DNA of 18,657 nucleotides from a virus (Duplodnaviria; Heunggongvirae; Uroviricota; Caudoviricetes). A program made the translations under genes and the position numbers. Below the pieces are notes generated by a model. That model was not told the origin of the DNA. It was given only the letters and a program-made list of their open reading frames with translations, and made no database searches. The stretch covers positions 1-18,657 of the IMG/VR virus record IMGVR_UViG_2529293015_000004. One strand, written 5' to 3'. Below are positions 1,815-15,257 of this stretch, piece after piece (position 1 is the first letter of the stretch; the number at the start of each line of letters is the position of its first letter).

Positions 1815-3299
1815 TCATTCATTAAGCCATGCCAGAGCTTCATCAACCTGCGCTTCGTCTTCGACGCTAAGCACTTCATCCTGGGGAACATAATCCGCCA
1901 GCATAGCGAAACAATATGTATCCCAATGGTCTGGTGAGTGCAGGTTGAGTTTTTTCTTCATATCCTCCTTACTCATCACCTTCCATTGACCTGCGGAGTT
2001 AATCCCTACAGGGATTTTCGACGCTTCCTCAATAGTTTCATTACCCTTATCCAGTCTCATACGACCAGATTTTACGGCCTCTGCGGCTTGAACGTTGGCA
2101 TAAGCACGTTTATCAAAGTACAGGCTCTTATCTTCACGGCTATGCATCTTTTTACCCCAGCGTATACGCTGTACGGTAATACCATAATACTCGTACATCA
2201 GATCCGCCGTTGCTTTACCCAGGCCATCGCCGTCTATCGCTATGGTGATATTTGGGAATCGCTCAGGATTACATTCTGCGAAAATTTTGGCGGCAAGCTG
2301 CGTTTCTGTAACGTCTGTGTATTCCAGCATTCGATAGTTGATTACACGGCGTTTATTTCGCTGGCCGGACACCATCATGATATTGATAACGGACTTATCC
2401 CGTCCCGTACCACCAGCAACGTCCACACATGCAAGCCAGCCCCATCCTTTGGCAATCTTGACTTTCCGCCGCGTTGCGCGTTCAACCTCATCACGTCCAA
2501 GAAGGAAGCCATCCTGTGATTTAGGGAATAGGCCGCGTACCTTAATCATGTACATAGGGTTATCACGCCCGCCGTACTCCGCCAGCTTCATTTTGATAAA
2601 TGCTGGCGTTACCAGCGGTGATTCCTCACTGTTAAGCGTGATCGCCGTATAAACGCCATCAGGGTTACCAGGACGCTTGGCCAGTTTATGGTGTGTATCG
2701 TAGAAATAGCCGCTTGGGCGTGTAGGCTGTGACAGCAATAAGATGCGGTTATCCTGTCCAGTAAGAGCACCGGTGATGATACCGAAAGCTCTATCACTGA
2801 CACCGGAGGCTTCATCGATAATATACAGAAGATGATCTGCGTGTTCACCGGCGAGAGCTTCTTCACTTCCCAGACGAAAGCCCTTCGGTACTACAGTCCA
2901 TACACCTTTACCAGTAACCTCATAGAAAGCGGTTTCTGTCAGAACAAAATAATCAGCAAGCCATGGGAAACGGCTGGTGGCAGTAGCCCAGTTTATCTTG
3001 ATGTACTTGAATATACCGGTCATTACCTGCTGAATTTTGTTCGCAACGATAATAGCGCGGGCACCGGGATACATGATTATGAACAACATGATCATGATAG
3101 AAGTCATGTCTGATTTCCCGGTACCGTGACCAGACGAAACAGATGTCTTGCTACCCTGTTCCTGCACAGACTCAATAATCAGATCCTGCTGCCAGGTAGG
3201 TGTTTTGCCGAACAAAACATCAGCGGCCGCAATCCAGTCATAACGATATAGCGCCACCAGCTCGCGCCAACGTGGATCCGTTACGCAACTTCTGGCCAT
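1815..3299 (-). CDS. pacB: Terminase large subunit (PacB-like, 494 aa)
   Basis: 494-aa ORF immediately downstream of and overlapping pacA (ATGA at 3299); position and size match P1 PacB as recalled; no terminase motifs were individually verified. Confidence 0.8.
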
Positions 3300-4492
3300 T
3301 AATCATCATCCCCGTATAGCTTGCGGGTAACTTCTTCGTCTTCCTCCTCGTCTTCGTCCAAGTCTTGTTCCAGCCATGGGTCGTTTGATACACCTTCAGT
3401 ATCAACATCTCCATAACCGCCTGTATCAACGATATCGGCGATTTCTTCCCTACGCTGCTCAATCCACAATGCGGCATCGGCGCGGCGGTTGGCGGCCCGT
3501 TCTCGCGCAACTTTGTCCAGATCTTCAAGAGAAGGGCCACCGACGGCTGTTTGCCTTTCCTCATCATCGGTATTTGTCTTAGGAGCACGCAGATCGGCTT
3601 TGATTTGCTCCAGCATCAGGGGCGGCACTTTTCCACCATGCGCCTCGATGAATTCAGCTGCTTCCAGCACTGACCAGTTATTTTCACGCTTTCGTTCGTA
3701 TGCCAGCTTAACAATGCCAGCTTGCCCCATAGACAAAGCGTGCTTTTCCGCCTCCCGGCTTTCTTTTCGATAGTTATTCCGGATGCTGTAAATGGTGTTG
3801 ATCAGGCTGCTTATCTGCGCGGAACAGCTGTTTAGCATGCTCGCGATACGGTATTCAGGCGGAGTACCTTCTTCATCGTCTTTTTGCTGATCGCGCATTT
3901 CCTGCACCAGGCGAATACACGTATCCCTGGCGTTCTCCAGCATAAGGAGATGAGAAAGAGACTTTTCAAGAAGAGTGGTTTCCAGAACATCGGCCCCGGA
4001 CCGACGCAACATAGCGCGCGCGGCCTTCCGCGCTTCAACGTTATCTATCAGGTAATCGCCAGCTTCGAATTCAAAGCGTTCACCATCATCATCCAGGGTG
4101 TCGCGTTCCAGGCGATCACGTAAGGTCCGGTGGGCGCGGGTGATCACGTCATGATCATCTGAACGATCATTTATGCGCTTATTTTGGCGCTTCGCATTCT
4201 CGACTGCGGCACTGACAACGGCATTAACTCTCTGTTTTTCCGCTATTTCAGCCGCAATATGATCACCTGCATGTTGATCATTAGAGTGATCAATGATCAT
4301 GCTTTTTAGTGGCTTCCTGACTGGCTTATTTGGCTTGCGGCTGTCCGCAGTCCTAGTGTCTTCTTTGAAGGCACGGAGATAACGACGTGCGGTATTAGGG
4401 TTAAGATTAAACTCGGCGGCATACTGTGCGATGGTGTAACCACCATCTCGCGCCAGGCGAGCAAAATTCTTCTTGTGATCGTCCCAGGTCAC
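3299..4492 (-). CDS. pacA: Terminase small / pac-recognition subunit (PacA-like, 397 aa)
   Basis: 397-aa ORF with an N-terminal HTH-like segment ([21 protein letters not shown]) and acidic C-terminus; contains the pac-like hexamer clusters internally; size matches P1 PacA as recalled. Confidence 0.75.
4141..4299. other. pac-like packaging site: seven TGATCA/GATC hexamers in clusters of 3 (4141-4170) and 4 (4260-4299)
   Basis: Hexamers at 4141, 4152 and 4164 on one side and 4260, 4275, 4287 and 4294 on the other, about 90 bp apart, inside pacA; the span (~159 bp) and 3+4 arrangement match the described P1 pac site. Confidence 0.6.
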
Positions 4493-6373: not shown

Positions 6374-6754
6374 CTACTCCGCAGAACCATACAATCTACG
6401 TAACGTGTCGGCGACAGAAGATACAGATATCTCTCCGGTCGCAGCCTCTACGGTAAGGTCTGCCAGTTCAGGTGAATCAAATACCTGCACCCCATTACGG
6501 CGTAGAAATAGCAGCGCACTGTTTAGCGCGGTACGCTTATTGGCATCATTGAATATATGCCCTCTCGCTGTAGCCACCAGGTAGGTGGCAGAGACTTCGA
6601 AAAGGTCGGTGATCTCTTCGTAGGCAACTCTGGCCTGAACTCTCCCGATAATGGCCTCTGCCCTACCCGGATCTGACATTCCCGGCAGGCCGCCGTAGCG
6701 GCTTATATTCGCATCATGAAGCGCAATAAGTTCTTCCGGTGATATATGCCTCAT
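6374..6754 (-). CDS. doc: Doc toxin (Fic/Doc family kinase), 126 aa
   Basis: 126 aa with the Doc/Fic motif HIFNDANKR; immediately downstream of and overlapping the 73-aa Phd-like gene; sequence is recognised as essentially P1 Doc (from memory). Confidence 0.9.
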
Positions 6755-6975
6755 TATCGGTTAACCAGTTCCTTGTTGGTGGAGTCCAGGGTGTCAAACA
6801 GGGATGCAAATTCAGCATCCAGCGCCGCTTTTTTGTAGGCTTCGAAAGTAGCCTTGCTGACAATTACTGCTGGCTCACGGCCTCTGCGGGTGATTTCAAC
6901 CTCTTCCCCGGCCTCAACATTGTTGAGCACTTCAGAAAGATTGCCGCGCGCGGTACGGAAGTTAATGGATTGCAT
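6754..6975 (-). CDS. phd: Phd antitoxin, 73 aa
   Basis: 73-aa [44 protein letters not shown]..., recognised as Phd; GAGG Shine-Dalgarno 6 nt upstream; stop overlaps doc start. Confidence 0.85.
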
Positions 6976-6984
6976 AAATACCTC

Positions 6985-7012
6985 GTGTACTCGTTATGTG
7001 TACACAATTATA
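6985..7012 (-). promoter_or_regulatory. phd-doc promoter/operator: -10 TATAAT (rev-comp of 7007-7012) followed by palindrome TGTGTACACA (6997-7006) and a GTGTAC half-site (6985-6990)
   Basis: Perfect 10-bp palindrome between the -10 hexamer and the Shine-Dalgarno, a typical autorepression operator position. Confidence 0.45.
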
Positions 7013-7151
7013 AACTTCACAGGCATAAAGCACCAGCACTTTGCGGCTTAACAAAACTCCAGGCAGGTCATTCATAGCCTAATGTCTGAACTGTTAAAGC
7101 CACCAAGTTGTTGTAGAATCACATCCAATTACATAAGCCTGAAATAAGTGG

Positions 7152-8714
7152 ATGAAAATGACAAGTATTCAACAACGTGCAGAGCTTCATCGTCAAATCT
7201 GGCAAATTGCTAACGATGTCAGGGGTTCGGTCGATGGATGGGATTTTAAGCAATACGTTCTGGGCGCACTTTTCTACCGTTTTATCAGCGAAAATTTTTC
7301 CAGCTATATTGAAGCCGGTGATGACAGTATCTGTTATGCGAAACTGGATGACAGCGTAATTACTGATGACATTAAAGACGATGCCATCAAAACCAAAGGC
7401 TACTTCATCTATCCAAGCCAGCTTTTCTGCAACGTAGCTGCGAAAGCAAATACCAATGACAGACTGAATGCAGATTTAAACAGTATCTTCGTTGCTATCG
7501 AAAGTTCTGCTTACGGTTATCCTTCAGAAGCTGACATCAAAGGTTTGTTTGCTGATTTCGATACCACCAGTAACCGCCTGGGTAACACCGTTAAAGATAA
7601 AAATGCCCGCCTGGCTGCGGTTCTGAAAGGGGTTGAAGGGTTAAAACTTGGTGACTTCAACGAACATCAGATTGACCTGTTCGGTGATGCCTATGAGTTC
7701 CTGATTTCTAACTATGCGGCAAATGCCGGTAAGTCAGGCGGTGAGTTCTTTACACCGCAGCACGTCTCTAAGCTGATTGCACAACTGGCTATGCACGGGC
7801 AGACCAGCGTTAACAAAATCTACGACCCGGCAGCGGGTTCCGGCTCACTGTTGTTGCAGGCGAAAAAACAGTTTGATAACCACATCATCGAAGAAGGCTT
7901 TTTCGGTCAGGAAATCAACCATACGACCTATAACCTGGCGCGTATGAACATGTTTTTGCACAATATCAACTACGACAAGTTTGATATCAAGCTGGGTAAT
8001 ACACTGACTGAGCCGCACTTCAGAGATGAAAAACCGTTTGACGCCATCGTATCTAACCCACCGTATTCGGTGAAATGGATTGGCAGCGATGACCCGACGC
8101 TGATTAACGATGAACGTTTTGCCCCGGCTGGCGTTCTGGCCCCCAAATCCAAAGCTGACTTTGCGTTTGTACTACATGCGCTGAACTATCTTTCGGCCAA
8201 AGGTCGTGCTGCGATTGTCTGCTTCCCGGGTATTTTTTACCGTGGCGGCGCAGAGCAGAAAATCCGTCAGTATCTGGTCGATAATAACTATGTCGAAACC
8301 ATAATTTCACTGGCACCGAACCTGTTCTTTGGCACCACCATTGCAGTAAACATTCTGGTGCTGTCTAAGCATAAAACGGATACCAAAGTTCAGTTTATTG
8401 ACGCCAGCGAACTGTTCAAAAAAGAGACTAACAACAATATCCTGACCGACGCCCATATCGAACAGATTATGCAGGTATTTGCCAGCAAGGAAGATGTTGC
8501 TCATCTGGCGAAATCTGTCGCGTTTGAAGCCGTTGTAGCGAATGACTATAACCTGTCGGTGAGCAGTTATGTGGAAGTGAAAGATAACCGCGAAATTATC
8601 GATATTGCTGAGCTGAATGCGGAACTGAAAACCACGGTCAGCAAAATCGACCAGTTGCGTAAAGATATTGATGCGATTGTAGCTGAAATTGAAGGCTGCG
8701 AGGTGCAGAAATGA
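7152..8714 (+). CDS. hsdM: Type I R-M DNA methyltransferase subunit HsdM (520 aa)
   Basis: AdoMet motif [10 protein letters not shown] and catalytic NPPY (VSNPPYS); stop overlaps the hsdS start (ATGA at 8711-8714). Confidence 0.9.
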
Positions 8715-9913
8715 GCGAGTTAAGTTATCTGGAAAAATTGCTGGATGGGATTGAGGTTGAGTGGAAAACACTAGGCAGTATAGCTGAACTAAAGCGAGGC
8801 ACATCAATTACAAAAAAAGATGTTATTGATGGAACCATCCCCGTAGTCGCTGGCGGACGTACACCAGCTTATTATCATAATACTAGTAATCGCGACGGAC
8901 AAACAATTGTTATCGCAGGTTCTGGTGCGTATGCGGGATTCGTTAGTTGGTGGGAGGAACCAATTTTCGTATCGGATGCATTTACTGTAAAACCTCATAA
9001 TATTTTGTTACCACGATATTGCTATCATTTTTTGATGAATATGCAACAACAACTCCATGAGTTTAAGAGTGGTGGTGGTGTTCCGCATGTTTATCCACGT
9101 GATGTATCACCTATTTTGATACCAATCCCCTGCCCGGATACCCCAGAAAAATCCCTTGCCATCCAGTCTGAAATCGTGCGGATTCTGGATAAATTTACTG
9201 CACTTACCGCTGAGCTTACCGCTGAGCTTAACATGCGTAAAAAACAGTACAACTACTATCGTGACCAGTTGTTGAGTTTTAAAGAGGGTGAGGTTGAGTG
9301 GAAGACTTTGGGGGAAATTGGAGATTTTACATATGGATATGCAGCCAAAGCCATGGATTCAGGAGATGCCCGTTTCGTGAGAATTACTGACATAAATAAA
9401 GACGGGAAGCTATCGAAAGAAAACCCAATGTACGTTGAATTAAATGAGGAAAATGAGAAATATACCTTAGACAAAAATGATTTACTCATGGCAAGAACTG
9501 GGGCAACCTTTGGTAAAACAATGATTTTTGAAGAAGATTATCCAGCAGTATACGCTGGTTTTTTAATAAAGTTGAACCTAAATAAAACGATTATTAATGC
9601 CAAATATTACTGGCACTTTGCACAAAGTGATTTTTTTTGGGAACAGGCTAATAAATTAGTATCTGGTGGTGGGCAACCACAGTTTAATGCTAATGCACTG
9701 AAACAAGTCAGAGTACCTATTCCATACCCATCTCACCCTCAAAAATCTTTAGACGAACAGGGGCGTATTGTGGATATTCTGGATAAGTTTGATGCAATCG
9801 CAGCTTCCATCACCGAAGGTCTCCCGCGTGAAATCGAGTTGCGCCAGAAACAATACGAGTACTATCGTGATTTACTGTTCAGTTTCCCAAAACCTGAAAC
9901 TGTCAGTAATTAA
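8711..9913 (+). CDS. hsdS: Type I R-M specificity subunit HsdS (400 aa), two target-recognition domains
   Basis: Duplicated conserved regions (ILDKF...[15 protein letters not shown] and ILDKF...[15 protein letters not shown]); repeated EVEWKTLG at the start of each half; central TAELTAEL repeat. Confidence 0.85.
9203..9226 (+). repeat. Two tandem copies of 12-bp unit CTTACCGCTGAG (plus a 4-nt partial third copy to 9230) in the hsdS central conserved region, encoding LTAE-LTAE
   Basis: Read directly: cttaccgctgag cttaccgctgag ctta. Confidence 0.85.
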
Positions 9914-10034
9914 TTGACCGTTGCTACCGACCGGGCCACCTTAACATCCGGTCTGTATATAGACTATTTTTTACGCGCCGGAAGTCACTCTTAACGCCCT
10001 TCCGGCCCTTGCCAGACGGCACAAAGGATGCGCT

Positions 10035-13000
10035 ATGACTCATCAGACACACACCATTGCTGAATCCAATAACTTTATCGTCCTTGATAAGTACATCAAA
10101 GCTGAGCAAACAGGCGACAGCTATCAGAGCGAATCGGACCTGGAACGTGAACTAATTCAGGACCTGCGGAATCAGGGCTATGAATTTATACCCGTAAAAT
10201 CACAGTCAGCGATGCTGGCCAACGTTCGGGAACAGCTTCAGAACCTCAATGGTGTGGTGTTTAATGACAGCGAGTGGCGGCGTTTCACGGAGCAATATCT
10301 GGACAACCCGAGTGATGGTATTCTGGATAAAACCCGTAAAATCCATATCGACTATATCTGCGACTTTATTTTTGACGACGGGCGTCTTGAGAACATCTAT
10401 CTGATCGATAAAAAGAATCTCATGCGCAACAAAGTGCAGATTATCCAGCAGTTTGAACAGGCAGGTTCTCACGCTAACCGTTATGACGTAACTATCCTGG
10501 TTAATGGCTTGCCTCTGGTACAAATCGAACTGAAAAAGCGCGGCGTGGCGATTCGTGAGGCTTTCAACCAGATACATCGTTACAGTAAAGAGAGTTTTAA
10601 CAGCGAAAATTCCCTGTTTAAATATCTGCAACTGTTTGTCATTTCTAATGGCACCGATACCCGTTACTTTGCCAACACCACAAAGCGCGATAAAAATAGT
10701 TTTGACTTCACCATGAACTGGGCGAAATCAGACAACACGCTGATTAAAGACCTCAACGACTTTACCGCTACCTTTTTCCAGAAACATACTCTGCTGAATG
10801 TTCTGGTGAACTACAGCGTGTTTGACAGTAGTCAGACGCTACTGGTGATGCGACCGTACCAGATTGCAGCTACCGAACGAATCTTATGGAAAATCAACAG
10901 CTCCTATAAAGCGAAAAACTGGTCTAACCCCGAAAGCGGTGGCTTTATCTGGCACACCACTGGTTCCGGTAAAACACTGACCAGCTTTAAAGCCGCGCGT
11001 CTGGCAACTGAACTGGACTTTATTGATAAAGTCTTCTTCGTGGTCGACAGGAAAGACCTCGATTACCAGACGATGAAGGAATATCAGCGTTTTTCGCCAG
11101 ATAGTGTTAACGGCTCGGAAAATACAGCAGGTCTTAAACGAAATCTGGATAAGGACGATAACAAAATTATCGTCACCACTATTCAGAAACTTAATAACCT
11201 GATGAAAGCAGAAAGCGACCTGCCTGTATACAATCAGCAAGTGGTGTTTATATTTGATGAATGCCACCGCAGCCAGTTTGGAGAAGCGCAGAAAAACCTG
11301 AAGAAGAAATTCAAACGCTATTATCAGTTTGGTTTTACCGGCACACCTATTTTCCCGGAAAACGCTTTAGGCTCAGAAACAACCGCCAGCGTATTTGGTC
11401 GTGAATTGCATTCGTATGTAATTACCGATGCGATTCGTGACGAAAAAGTGCTCAAATTCAAGGTGGACTACAACGATGTGCGGCCACAGTTTAAGTCTTT
11501 AGAGACAGAAACTGACGAGAAAAAACTGAGTGCGGCTGAAAATCAGCAGGCGTTTCTTCATCCCATGCGTATTCAGGAAATCACGCAATATATCCTGAAC
11601 AACTTCCGCCAGAAAACCCACCGTACTTTCCCTGGTTCCAAAGGTTTTAATGCCATGCTGGCAGTAAGCAGCGTGGATGCTGCAAAAGCCTATTATGCGA
11701 CGTTTAAACGGTTACAAGAGGAAGCCGCTAATAAATCGGCTACCTATAAACCGCTGCGTATTGCGACAATCTTCTCCTTTGCCGCCAATGAAGAACAAAA
11801 TGCCATTGGTGAAATTTCCGATGAAACTTTTGATACCAGCGCAATGGACAGCAGTGCTAAAGAGTTTCTGGACGCTGCAATTCGTGAATATAACAGCCAT
11901 TTTAAAACTAACTTTAGCACCGACAGTAACGGTTTTCAGAACTACTATCGTGATTTAGCCCAGCGGGTTAAAAATCAGGATATCGATCTGCTAATTGTCG
12001 TGGGGATGTTCTTAACCGGCTTCGATGCTCCAACATTGAACACGCTATTCGTCGATAAAAACTTACGTTATCACGGCCTGATGCAGGCATTTTCCCGCAC
12101 TAACCGCATTTATGACGCCACTAAAACCTTCGGTAATATCGTCACTTTCCGGGATCTGGAACGCTCAACTATTGATGCCATAACGCTGTTTGGTGACAAA
12201 AACACCAAAAATGTGGTGTTAGAAAAGAGTTATACAGAGTATATGGAAGGCTTTACTGATGCTGCTACAGGTGAAGCTAAACGCGGCTTCATGACAGTAG
12301 TTTCAGAACTGGAACAACGGTTCCCTGACCCTACCAGTATTGAAAGTGAAAAAGAGAAGAAAGACTTCGTTAAACTGTTTGGCGAATACCTGCGTGCCGA
12401 GAACATCCTGCAAAACTATGATGAATTTGCCACGCTAAAAGCCCTGCAACAAATCGATCTTAGCGATCCTGTTGCGGTAGAAAAATTCAAAGCAGAACAT
12501 TATGTGGATGATGAAAAGTTCGCTGAATTGCAAACAATTCGTCTCCCTGCTGATCGCAAGATTCAGGATTATCGTTCTGCCTATAACGATATTCGCGACT
12601 GGCAGCGCCGTGAGAAAGAAGCTGAGAAAAAAGAGAAATCAACCACTGACTGGGATGACGTAGTTTTTGAGGTCGATTTGCTGAAGTCTCAGGAAATAAA
12701 CCTGGATTATATCCTTGGACTGATTTTCGAACACAACAGACAAAATAAAGGCAAGGGCGAAATGATCGAAGAGGTCAAACGCTTAATTCGTTCAAGTCTA
12801 GGGAACCGTGCTAAAGAGGGCCTGGTGGTCGATTTTATTCAGCAAACGAACCTGGATGATTTACCGGACAAAGCCAGCATCATTGACGCATTCTTTACGT
12901 TTGCTCAACGCGAACAGAAACGTGAAGCAGAAGCATTGATAAAAGAAGAAAATCTCAATGAAGAGGCGGCGAAACGCTATATTCGCACATCTTTAAAACG

Positions 13001-13151
13001 CGAATACGCCACCGAAAATGGTACAGGATTAAATGATACATTACCAAAACTTAGTCCGTTAAATCCGCAATATAAAACGAAAAAACAGACGGTTTTCCAG
13101 AAAATCGTCTCGTTTATTGAGAAGTTTAAAGGCGTAGGCGGAAAAATATAG
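10035..13151 (+). CDS. hsdR: Type I R-M restriction subunit HsdR (1038 aa)
   Basis: N-terminal PD-(D/E)xK-like region ([19 protein letters not shown]); helicase motifs [32 protein letters not shown]; separated from hsdS by 121 bp, consistent with its own promoter. Confidence 0.9.
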
Positions 13152-13230
13152 CCCAATTCGTGTTTTTCTTGCGGGTTCTTAATTAAACCCGCAAGAGCTC
13201 GTGGGGTTCCAAATGGCTAATATACTCCCC

Positions 13231-13317
13231 TTACCCATGCGCGACGATGCCGCCAAAAGTGATAGAGAACAGCCAGAAATAGATCGCGGCCATAATGATT
13301 TTGAATGCCGTGTTCAT
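13231..13317 (-). CDS. Candidate small hydrophobic peptide (28 aa, MNTAFKIIMAAIYFWLFSITFGGIVAHG)
   Basis: ATG preceded by AGGAG at 8-nt spacing; single predicted transmembrane-like helix; operator-like site and promoter-like elements ~85 bp upstream; below the ORF-track size cut-off. Confidence 0.3.
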   Translation of the reverse strand: MNTAFKIIMAAIYFWLFSITFGGIVAHG

Positions 13318-13345
13318 ATTTTCAGCTCCTGTGATTGATTGGATA

Positions 13346-13376
13346 CATGCCGCGTCTTGCGGCATGTTTTTATTTT
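13346..13376 (+). terminator. Rho-independent terminator (stem catgccgc/gcggcatg, loop gtctt, then tttttatttt); probably ends the hsdR transcript
   Basis: 8-bp perfect stem followed by a T-run on the plus strand, ~195 bp after the hsdR stop; lies in the 5' leader of the minus-strand peptide ORF. Confidence 0.5.
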
Positions 13377-13399
13377 CACTTTCTCTGTTTTAAAAATCA

Positions 13400-13416
13400 A
13401 GATTTATTAGGGCAAT
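13400..13416 (-). promoter_or_regulatory. C1-type operator-like site (15/17) overlapping the stop of the HAD-like gene, upstream of the small peptide ORF
   Basis: Plus strand agatttattagggcaat; on the minus strand ATTGCCCTAATAAATCT, followed 17 bp later by TAAAAC (possible -10). Confidence 0.4.
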
Positions 13417-13922
13417 TATTGTTGATGGAGAAGCGCATTTTCATACTCCCTGACCATTAACGTAAGTACGCCGTGTCTCCTGAAAACACGCGCCACTTCA
13501 ATCTTATCTTCCAGCGCGAACGCAATTTTACTTAGACCAATTTTCTTAAGGAGATCAATCTTTGCTGGGCCGTCATTTCTGTCATCGGTGGCAGGACGCA
13601 TAGATAGCAAAGGCTCAGCCCCATTTGTTACGTGCTTACGCAACCAAGCTCGTGTTTTATCCCTGGCTATCTCACAGCGCCCGGTTACAAACCAGAGCGT
13701 GTAAATGCCGGACAACTGGCGCACCATATCAATAACTGGAGTGATGGGAGCATCAGTGTCACAGGCAAGGTTAAACTCGTTCCAGTGCTCTGTTAATGCA
13801 CCTTTGCCAGGTGGTGGAAGTAAATGCAGCCTGTCTTCCGTTGCCTCTGATATCGTTCCATCAATATCTACTATGACGATGTACGGACGTTCCTGGTGTG
13901 CGTGTTTATTGAAAATACTCAA
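13416..13922 (-). CDS. HAD-superfamily phosphatase-like protein (168 aa)
   Basis: HAD motif I DIDGT near the N-terminus (IVIVDIDGTISE), downstream T and K motifs (FVTGR, KIDLLKK). Confidence 0.55.
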   Translation of the reverse strand: MSIFNKHAHQERPYIVIVDIDGTISEATEDRLHLLPPPGKGALTEHWNEFNLACDTDAPITPVIDMVRQLSGIYTLWFVTGRCEIARDKTRAWLRKHVTNGAEPLLSMRPATDDRNDGPAKIDLLKKIGLSKIAFALEDKIEVARVFRRHGVLTLMVREYENALLHQQ

Positions 13923-13994
13923 ATGCCCTCCTCATTGGACGAAAAAAATGCTGGTGGGCGCACTCCACCAGCATTAAAAGTGACACTGTAACTG

Positions 13995-15257
13995 TCAGCG
14001 AACATAAATAGTGCCGCCGTTCTCTTTTTCCCATGCATCGCTACGTGCATAGCAAACATCGAGAAGTCTTCTTGCCGCTGTTTCCTCTAAACCCAATTCG
14101 ACAACCAACTGCTCATGACGGCGGGTAACCACATCAAACAGGGTATGCAGCCCTTTAGCTGCCAGATCATCAATAAATTCCGGTTCGAACGGCAGCTCTG
14201 CCTCTGCCAACATAACCTCTTGCGCCCACTCAACTCGACGGACCAGTTCCGGGCGGCGGCTTTCCATCTCTTTACAGATCAATTCATGGAAGAACTCTAC
14301 CCAACCTTCCGGCTGGAACTCGCGGAAAATGGCCAACGGCTGGAAGTTTGGCATCAACCATTCGTTGATCCGGATATCAATGGCATAGCCCATGTCGCAG
14401 CAGAACTGATAAGCAAAGTCCAGCTTAGAAACGATATAAGGACGCTCGTTATTGAACTCTTTAGGCGATGAGATCCCATAAGCCAGGAGGCGCGGGAAGA
14501 AGGAGATTTGCCCTAACGTCGGATGAAGTTTGCTTGCAGGGAAACGGCGCTCAGTAATGCCATACATTTCCTTCTTGAGCGTCGCAAATTTGGCATTCTC
14601 ATTAACCAGCGCGGTAACCTCTGCTTTTTTATTAGCAAATGCCACGCGCGCCTCGCTTGCATCTTTAATAGTTTTTTTGAGCTGTTGGTTAAGGTCGGCG
14701 ACCTGCTTACGCAGTTCCTGTCGCTCGCTTTTAGCTTTGTTATAGCGTTTCTCAAGGTTAAAAGGATCAAGTTTCATGATCTCTTTATATTGAGATTTTA
14801 GCGTTGAAATCTGTGAGTTCCGCAGTTCAACCATCGCGGTCATTTCATTGAGTTTTGTTTCCAGCTCAATGCTTATACGTTCGGCATTATCAGCACGCTG
14901 GTTGGCGTCATGCGTCGCATCGTCGATCGCGTCCTGTTGCTGGCGTTTCAAATGTTCAATTTCCAGCTGAAGCTCTTCAATTTCTTTACCCTTCAGACCG
15001 AGATCCAACTGCATATTTTCAGCTGCATCTACCAGGGAGTTATGGCTATCAGCTTCTGCGTTATAAACATCAATAAGCTGTGCGTGAAGCATCTCCGCTG
15101 ACTGAACCGCATTATCAAAAAAACGTGCTGTGAGGTCATCACAACTAACGCGGCGTTGCGCGGCCCGGATGTTCTGGATAATGGCCGGGATACCGGCATT
15201 CAGGACATCAGGGATACATACATTTTCGATTGATTGGTTTTGTGCTGAAGTGCTCAT
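13995..15257 (-). CDS. Hypothetical protein (420 aa): long central coiled-coil-like region and a C-terminal domain of unknown function
   Basis: Long ORF translationally coupled to the upstream 72-aa gene (TGAaATG); heptad-like charged segments at roughly residues 80-220; no recognisable catalytic motif. Confidence 0.6.
   Translation of the reverse strand: MSTSAQNQSIENVCIPDVLNAGIPAIIQNIRAAQRRVSCDDLTARFFDNAVQSAEMLHAQLIDVYNAEADSHNSLVDAAENMQLDLGLKGKEIEELQLEIEHLKRQQQDAIDDATHDANQRADNAERISIELETKLNEMTAMVELRNSQISTLKSQYKEIMKLDPFNLEKRYNKAKSERQELRKQVADLNQQLKKTIKDASEARVAFANKKAEVTALVNENAKFATLKKEMYGITERRFPASKLHPTLGQISFFPRLLAYGISSPKEFNNERPYIVSKLDFAYQFCCDMGYAIDIRINEWLMPNFQPLAIFREFQPEGWVEFFHELICKEMESRRPELVRRVEWAQEVMLAEAELPFEPEFIDDLAAKGLHTLFDVVTRRHEQLVVELGLEETAARRLLDVCYARSDAWEKENGGTIYVR

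Follow-up and report, generated by a model that had tools for sequence, protein, structure and literature searches.

A two-unit TAEL repeat in the specificity subunit of a type IC restriction-modification system on a P1-like phage-plasmid

We analysed 18,657 nt of a P1-like (Punavirus) phage-plasmid, referred to below as the window, and found that a 12-bp tandem repeat in its hsdS gene is very probably the TAEL ruler of a type IC specificity subunit, the length of which can be changed by replication slippage or unequal crossing-over. The two-unit tract is a slow evolutionary polymorphism and not a demonstrated phase-variable switch. The ruler itself is an already known, textbook feature, because the repeat region of the window is identical to that of the prototype of a paradigm published in 1987–1992. 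The only new element is the uncharacterised pair of recognition domains on either side of it.

RESULTS

An intact hsdMSR operon of the EcoR124 family

The repeat is located in a cassette with the gene order hsdM-hsdS-hsdR, in which all three open reading frames are intact and the stop codon of hsdM overlaps the start codon of hsdS (ATGA). The features of the cassette are listed here, with TRD standing for target-recognition domain.

7152..8714, plus strand: hsdM, methyltransferase subunit, 520 aa (Pfam N6_Mtase and HsdM_N)
8711..9913, plus strand: hsdS, specificity subunit, 400 aa, intact (open reading frame, Pfam Methylase_S in two stretches, match to 7bst_A)
8711..8776, plus strand: conserved N-terminal region of HsdS (almost the same sequence as at the start of 7bst_A; direct repeat D4 recurs where the central region ends)
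8777..9130, plus strand: TRD1, the N-terminal target-recognition domain, different from that of EcoR124I (poor conservation against 7bst_A)
9131..9322, plus strand: central conserved region, residues 141–204, holding the TAEL units (7bst_A alignment)
9203..9230, plus strand: CTTACCGCTGAG twice plus 4 nt, encoding TAEL-TAEL (Tandem Repeats Finder, shuffles, reading frame, primer identity with EcoR124II)
9323..9724, plus strand: TRD2, the C-terminal target-recognition domain (variable against 7bst_A; database comparison)
9725..9910, plus strand: conserved C-terminal region, paralogous to the central one (internal direct repeats)
9941..9970, plus strand: candidate promoter-like site between hsdS and hsdR, which are 121 nt apart (9 of 12 positions match in a consensus scan)
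10035..13151, plus strand: hsdR, restriction/translocase subunit, 1038 aa, intact (Pfam HSDR_N, SWI2_SNF2, T1R_D3-like and EcoR124_C)

The three subunits matched the solved EcoR124 chains over their full lengths: HsdM the EcoR124II M protein (7bst_D, residues 1–520, 1155.6 bits), HsdR the EcoR124 HsdR (2w00_A, residues 1–1038, 2277.8 bits) and HsdS the EcoR124 HsdS chain (7bst_A, E = 3e-78). A protein identical to the HsdS of the window (P0001) is annotated in E. coli. The criteria that define type I families are complementation, antibody cross-reaction and sequence; by the last of these, which we applied to the window, the system is a type IC restriction-modification system of the EcoR124 family, with the subunit sequences, the HsdS layout, the in-frame TAEL units and the gene order of that family all found. 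An earlier note on this DNA had called the gene a type IC hsdS, a call borne out by the full-length matches of HsdM and HsdR to EcoR124 chains and by the identity of the HsdS central region. Type IC hsdR genes have a separate promoter. The gap upstream of hsdR holds the promoter-like site listed above, which is a weak candidate, as such sites were no more numerous in the region than in shuffles.

Within HsdS, we found the type IC layout of a conserved N-terminal end, TRD1, a central region, TRD2 and a C-terminal region, the central region resembling the C-terminal one. Type IC HsdS subunits start and finish within the second conserved helix. The conserved N-terminal, central and C-terminal regions were essentially identical to those of 7bst_A, whereas both TRDs were dissimilar. 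Indeed, in the HMMER alignment residues ∼145–204 were residue-identical to EcoR124 7bst_A, including both copies of TAEL, which sit between TRD1 and TRD2 inside the central conserved region.

The two recognition domains differed in how widely they occur. TRD2 was combined with 25 different TRD1 clusters across 96 database proteins and is thus a widely shuffled module, whereas TRD1 was present at >85% identity in nine database proteins with other TRD2s, and together with only two other TRD2 clusters. By eye, TRD1 of the window also resembles TRD2 of the NT1F10 HsdS (L002; ...RGTAITQKQ..IPVVANG...IVIARSGAYAGYVSFW..PIFLTDAFSV...), a resemblance which suggests that related recognition domains may be used at either HsdS position.

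Two perfect in-frame units in the central helix

Tandem Repeats Finder (TRF) described positions 9203–9230 as a repeat of period 12 with 2.3 copies, 100% match, no indels and the consensus CTTACCGCTGAG. Read in order, the region is gca CTTACCGCTGAG CTTACCGCTGAG CTTA ac, so that two units are followed by the opening 4 nt of another. Codon 165 of the 400-codon open reading frame begins at position 9203, and the repeat is therefore in frame, translating as L-T-A-E / L-T-A-E / L (residues 165–173) or, in the conventional register, TAEL twice. What the earlier note had given as position, unit, copy number and translation was correct in every respect by TRF and the frame check. Furthermore, published primers for removing one TAEL unit from EcoR124II matched the window exactly at 9198 and 9218, and the repeat and its flanks thus equal EcoR124II at the DNA level too.

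With repeat strength set at ≥16 matching positions for any period of 4–30, the tract was the sole perfect tandem repeat of this strength in the 18.6-kb window, and none of 200 mononucleotide shuffles of the window gave a repeat as strong. The same two-unit sequence was present in hundreds of independent complete genomes as well as in the solved EcoR124 chain, and its 28 nt are far shorter than sequencing reads. That the repeat arose by chance or is an assembly artefact, and is functionally meaningless, can on these grounds be given next to no weight. TRF also reported further weak 12-bp or 6-bp tandem repeats at 3333–3366, 4169–4192 and 12611–12633 (scores 34–39, 80–90% match), located in the pacA region and in hsdR.

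The paralogy of the central and C-terminal regions allowed the two helices to be compared in length. Direct-repeat families D2 and D1, which flank the tract, recur at spacings of 594 and 606 nt, respectively (9173–9279 versus 9767–9885). This shift in offset across the repeat means that the central helix, with its two units, falls short of its partner by exactly one unit (12 nt, 4 aa), and the distance from ILDKF to YYRD is 19 residues in the central region versus 23 in the C-terminal region. Judging from these distances, three units would equalise the central and C-terminal helix lengths. The C-terminal helix of the window, longer by one unit, agrees with the view that three units are the apparent optimum (PMC3874165); how the coiled coil accommodates an extra turn in one helix only has been described as unclear (PMC3874165).

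The published rule and the spacing predicted for the window

EcoR124I (GAAN6RTCG) has two copies of the 12-bp sequence in its first conserved helix and EcoR124II (GAAN7RTCG) has three; each copy specifies TAEL, slightly more than one turn of the helix, and the one extra unit in EcoR124II lengthens the spacer by 1 bp (PMC3874165). The rule survives TRD swaps, as the hybrids EcoDR2/RD2 have N6 and EcoDR3/RD3 have N7 spacers, and in total two units give N6 and three give N7 for EcoR124I/II and four EcoR124/EcoDXXI hybrid domain combinations (PMC3874165).

Among the named systems, EcoR124I is the type IC prototype, from plasmid R124: its HsdM and HsdR are near-identical to those of the window over their full lengths, and the HsdS central and terminal conserved regions, the two TAEL units, the unit DNA and the gene order are as in the window. 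Both TRDs, in contrast, differ (weak similarity), and the carrier is a conjugative plasmid, whereas that of the window is a P1-like phage-plasmid. EcoR124II (also EcoR124/3) is the same system with the same 12-bp unit, but has three units versus the two of the window. EcoDXXI (TCAN7RTTC) and EcoprrI (CCAN7RTGC) are likewise type IC systems with the TAEL ruler of the window, but with three units and other TRDs. Beyond these, NgoAV is a type IC system which, like the window, has 4-residue repeats in the HsdS central region, although the repeat sequence and the host differ. In natural isolates of Neisseria gonorrhoeae, the number of its LEAT/EATL repeats tracks N6 versus N7 motifs (PMC6789123); unlike in the window, a frameshift by which HsdS is truncated also determines NgoAV specificity.

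By the same logic, each 12-bp unit in the window would lengthen the central conserved helix by four residues, or about one turn. Paired with the C-terminal conserved helix in an antiparallel coiled coil, the central helix would set the distance and twist between the recognition domains. With its two units, the window enzyme is predicted to recognise a bipartite site with EcoR124I-type spacing, in which the methylated adenines would be 7 nt apart. This interval would correspond to N6 with one half-site of 3 bp and the other of 4 bp, and the number of Ns could differ otherwise. The half-sites themselves would be set by the two recognition domains and, because both differ from those of EcoR124I, should not be GAA and RTCG. 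The claim of the earlier note that repeat number sets the spacer is thus consistent with the published EcoR124I/II rule (PMC3874165), given the identical central region and unit DNA.

Because the units are perfect direct repeats, one of them could be removed or another added. Either replication slippage or unequal crossing-over may bring this about, and the spacer would then shift by one base pair; in natural populations, such gain and loss would be rare but recurrent.

Unit number in relatives of the window allele

To see how unit number varies in nature, we compared the window allele with its database relatives. All 14 protein clusters at ≥96% identity to it were 400 aa long and had two units. 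In the wider set of 239 proteins that share a TRD with either the window or the E2348/69 allele, 231 had two units, four had three, three had one and one was diverged, and we conclude from the 231 that a change in unit number is rare. About 97% of the related protein clusters had the same length. Carriers of the window TRD2 (n = 96) gave a similar picture, with two full units in 93, a second unit of unchanged length but with a point mutation in one and a single unit in two. A static structural element, in which two units are fixed in the lineage and never act as a switch during the life of the plasmid, would account for the 14 uniform clusters, for the 231 of 239 relatives and for the near-constant two units of the window TRD2 across its 25 TRD1 clusters.

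The same relatives nevertheless included alleles that speak against such fixation. The HsdS of pYLPD4a (406 aa, three units) was 98.8% identical to P0037 (402 aa, two units), and from the repeat onwards to the 3′ end the pYLPD4a DNA did not differ from that of the window, with 100% DNA identity in TRD2. We rejected a strict link between unit number and the window TRD2, as both pYLPD4a and the elppa10 plasmid combine the same TRD2 DNA with three units. Similarly, the HsdS of E2348/69 (L004, hsdS at 1985–3211), with three TAEL units in several assemblies (H51, H62, H167 and H195), was 99% identical to P0122, which was present in 143 contigs and has two units, the number that this allele carries in most other genomes. 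At the lower end, the one-unit proteins P0110 and P0119 were 98.6–99% identical to the two-unit proteins P0071 and P0081, and the hsdMSR operons around two one-unit alleles (P0110 and P0155) are complete. By these comparisons, natural alleles with the same domains carry one, two or three units, and the laboratory pair EcoR124I/II has natural E. coli counterparts. E2348/69, the EPEC reference, and P0122 form a ready natural pair for a comparison of N7 with N6.

Among 20,395 records of complete E. coli genomes, about 1300 (1302) carried the HsdS central region. Record spans in 60 of the 1302 records, sampled across the ranking, indicated two units in ∼31, three in ∼25, four in one and five in one.

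Units within an allele are alike

Five synonymous versions of the unit were present between alleles (CTTACCGCTGAG, CTTACAGCAGAG, CTTACAGCTGAG, CTGACAGCAGAG and CTTACAGCTGAA), three of which were seen with both two and three units. Within alleles, on the other hand, all units were identical in 17 of the 18 that we read (window 9203–9226 compared with L007 3052–3075 and L010–L017); the exception was NT1F10, whose first unit ends in GAA instead of GAG. This was also evident in HH107, which carries the window allele at 98% identity and in which both units were altered at the same two synonymous sites. Homogeneity within alleles in spite of synonymous divergence between them points to repeated contraction and re-duplication, or to conversion, and the TAEL units thus evolve in concert.

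Tracts of four or more units

Longer tracts were gathered from the record spans and by scanning metagenome contigs for an exact 48-nt match. Strain 33-6 had eight units, the NT1F10 lineage and plasmid C of S30 had five each, and the P1-like plasmid of ETEC1701 had four; in addition, four metagenome contigs carried four to six units. The same exact 48-nt (four-unit) scan of viral contigs gave no match. The long TAEL tracts were located as follows.

L001, 2561–2656: long TAEL tract
L002, 2561–2620: long TAEL tract
L003, 2561–2608: long TAEL tract
L008, 3061–3120: long TAEL tract
L020, 4799–4870, minus strand: long TAEL tract
L021, 658–705: long TAEL tract
L022, 3793–3852: long TAEL tract

Most of these loci were damaged. 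In 33-6 and S30, IS1 is inserted in hsdS and hsdM is truncated; in NT1F10, hsdM is truncated and adjoins IS2; and in ETEC1701, IS3 lies inside hsdS. L020 has a DDE transposase in place of hsdM and the 5′ end of hsdS, and L022 has a stop in TRD2, 12 nt before the end of the contig. Only L021, with four units, had an intact hsdS among the long-tract loci, in the part that is sequenced. Operons broken by an IS or a truncation thus made up 5–6 of the 7 assessable loci with four to eight units versus 1 of 14 with two or three units, the latter being the elppa10 plasmid (Fisher p 0.0009–0.002, a value that ignores relatedness in a sample that is small, non-random and partly made up of incomplete contigs).

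It is possible, though on balance doubtful, that growth of the TAEL tract past three units goes together with the demise of type IC systems in nature. Long tracts could relax the spacing that the enzyme accepts, so that it attacks its own host; selection would then favour inactivation by an IS. Four-unit enzymes have been described as promiscuous, although the comparison of loci does not draw on this. Alternatively, the tract may drift upward after selection has been lost.

Slow polymorphism rather than demonstrated switch

The earlier note had described the repeat as a built-in specificity switch that gains or loses units by slipped-strand events. On an evolutionary time scale this was supported, as pairs of alleles with the same domains do differ by one unit and one-unit variants exist in nature; for the window allele itself, all 14 clusters had two units. 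As for the mutational route, a review ascribes changes in unit number to unequal crossing-over and not to slippage (PMC3874165). Slippage and unequal crossing-over cannot be told apart from these sequences, and we infer both the mechanism and the rate of unit change.

A far stronger form of switching would make the tract a high-frequency phase-variable locus of the phasevarion type, with the rates of a contingency locus and mixed methylomes in every culture. The perfect repeat is in frame, so that the protein would stay intact when the tract changes in length, and a survey has raised the idea for tracts adjoining TAEL (PMC7383803). However, two 12-bp units are short for efficient slippage, the database copies of the window allele showed no length heterogeneity, and the equal length of ∼97% of related clusters points to rare events. 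Nor did we find the long tract and the length heterogeneity in close relatives by which simple-sequence phase-variable type I systems are recognised, and active switching in the window allele was not evident from its 14 database clusters. We regard high-frequency phase variation as very improbable here.

The static element described above fares better, but is still rather unlikely. Against it stand the three units next to the same TRD2 on pYLPD4a and the elppa10 plasmid, the same-domain pairs that differ by exactly one unit, the homogenisation of units within alleles, which requires loss and re-duplication or conversion, and the existence of tracts of one to eight units. Taken from comparisons among alleles, these observations support a length polymorphism that would result from recurrent but rare gain and loss of units on an evolutionary time scale.

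The phage-plasmid setting

In the window, the hsd cassette lies between phd/doc and pmgS (flanks 6374–7151 and 13152–15257) and is surrounded by pacA/pacB, lpa, pdcA/pdcB, doc/phd, pmgS and hdmD. P1, which is without the hsd cassette, covers only 58% of the window. One contig encoding the identical HsdS (P0001) showed the same doc/phd-hsdMSR arrangement. In pHH107-1, pYLPD4a and elppa10 (L005–L007, 1–1000), it is hot (DNA polymerase III theta) that lies directly upstream of hsdM, next to humD, as opposed to phd/doc here, and the upstream neighbourhood of the cassette therefore varies among P1-like elements. A literature search on type I systems of P1-like phage-plasmids found nothing relevant.

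DISCUSSION

For the window, the analysis predicts EcoR124I-type spacing for an intact type IC system that is carried by a P1-like phage-plasmid and has a TRD pair unlike that of EcoR124I. For the family, the comparison of unit numbers leaves existing knowledge unchanged and provides useful background for predicting methylation motifs from hsdS sequences.
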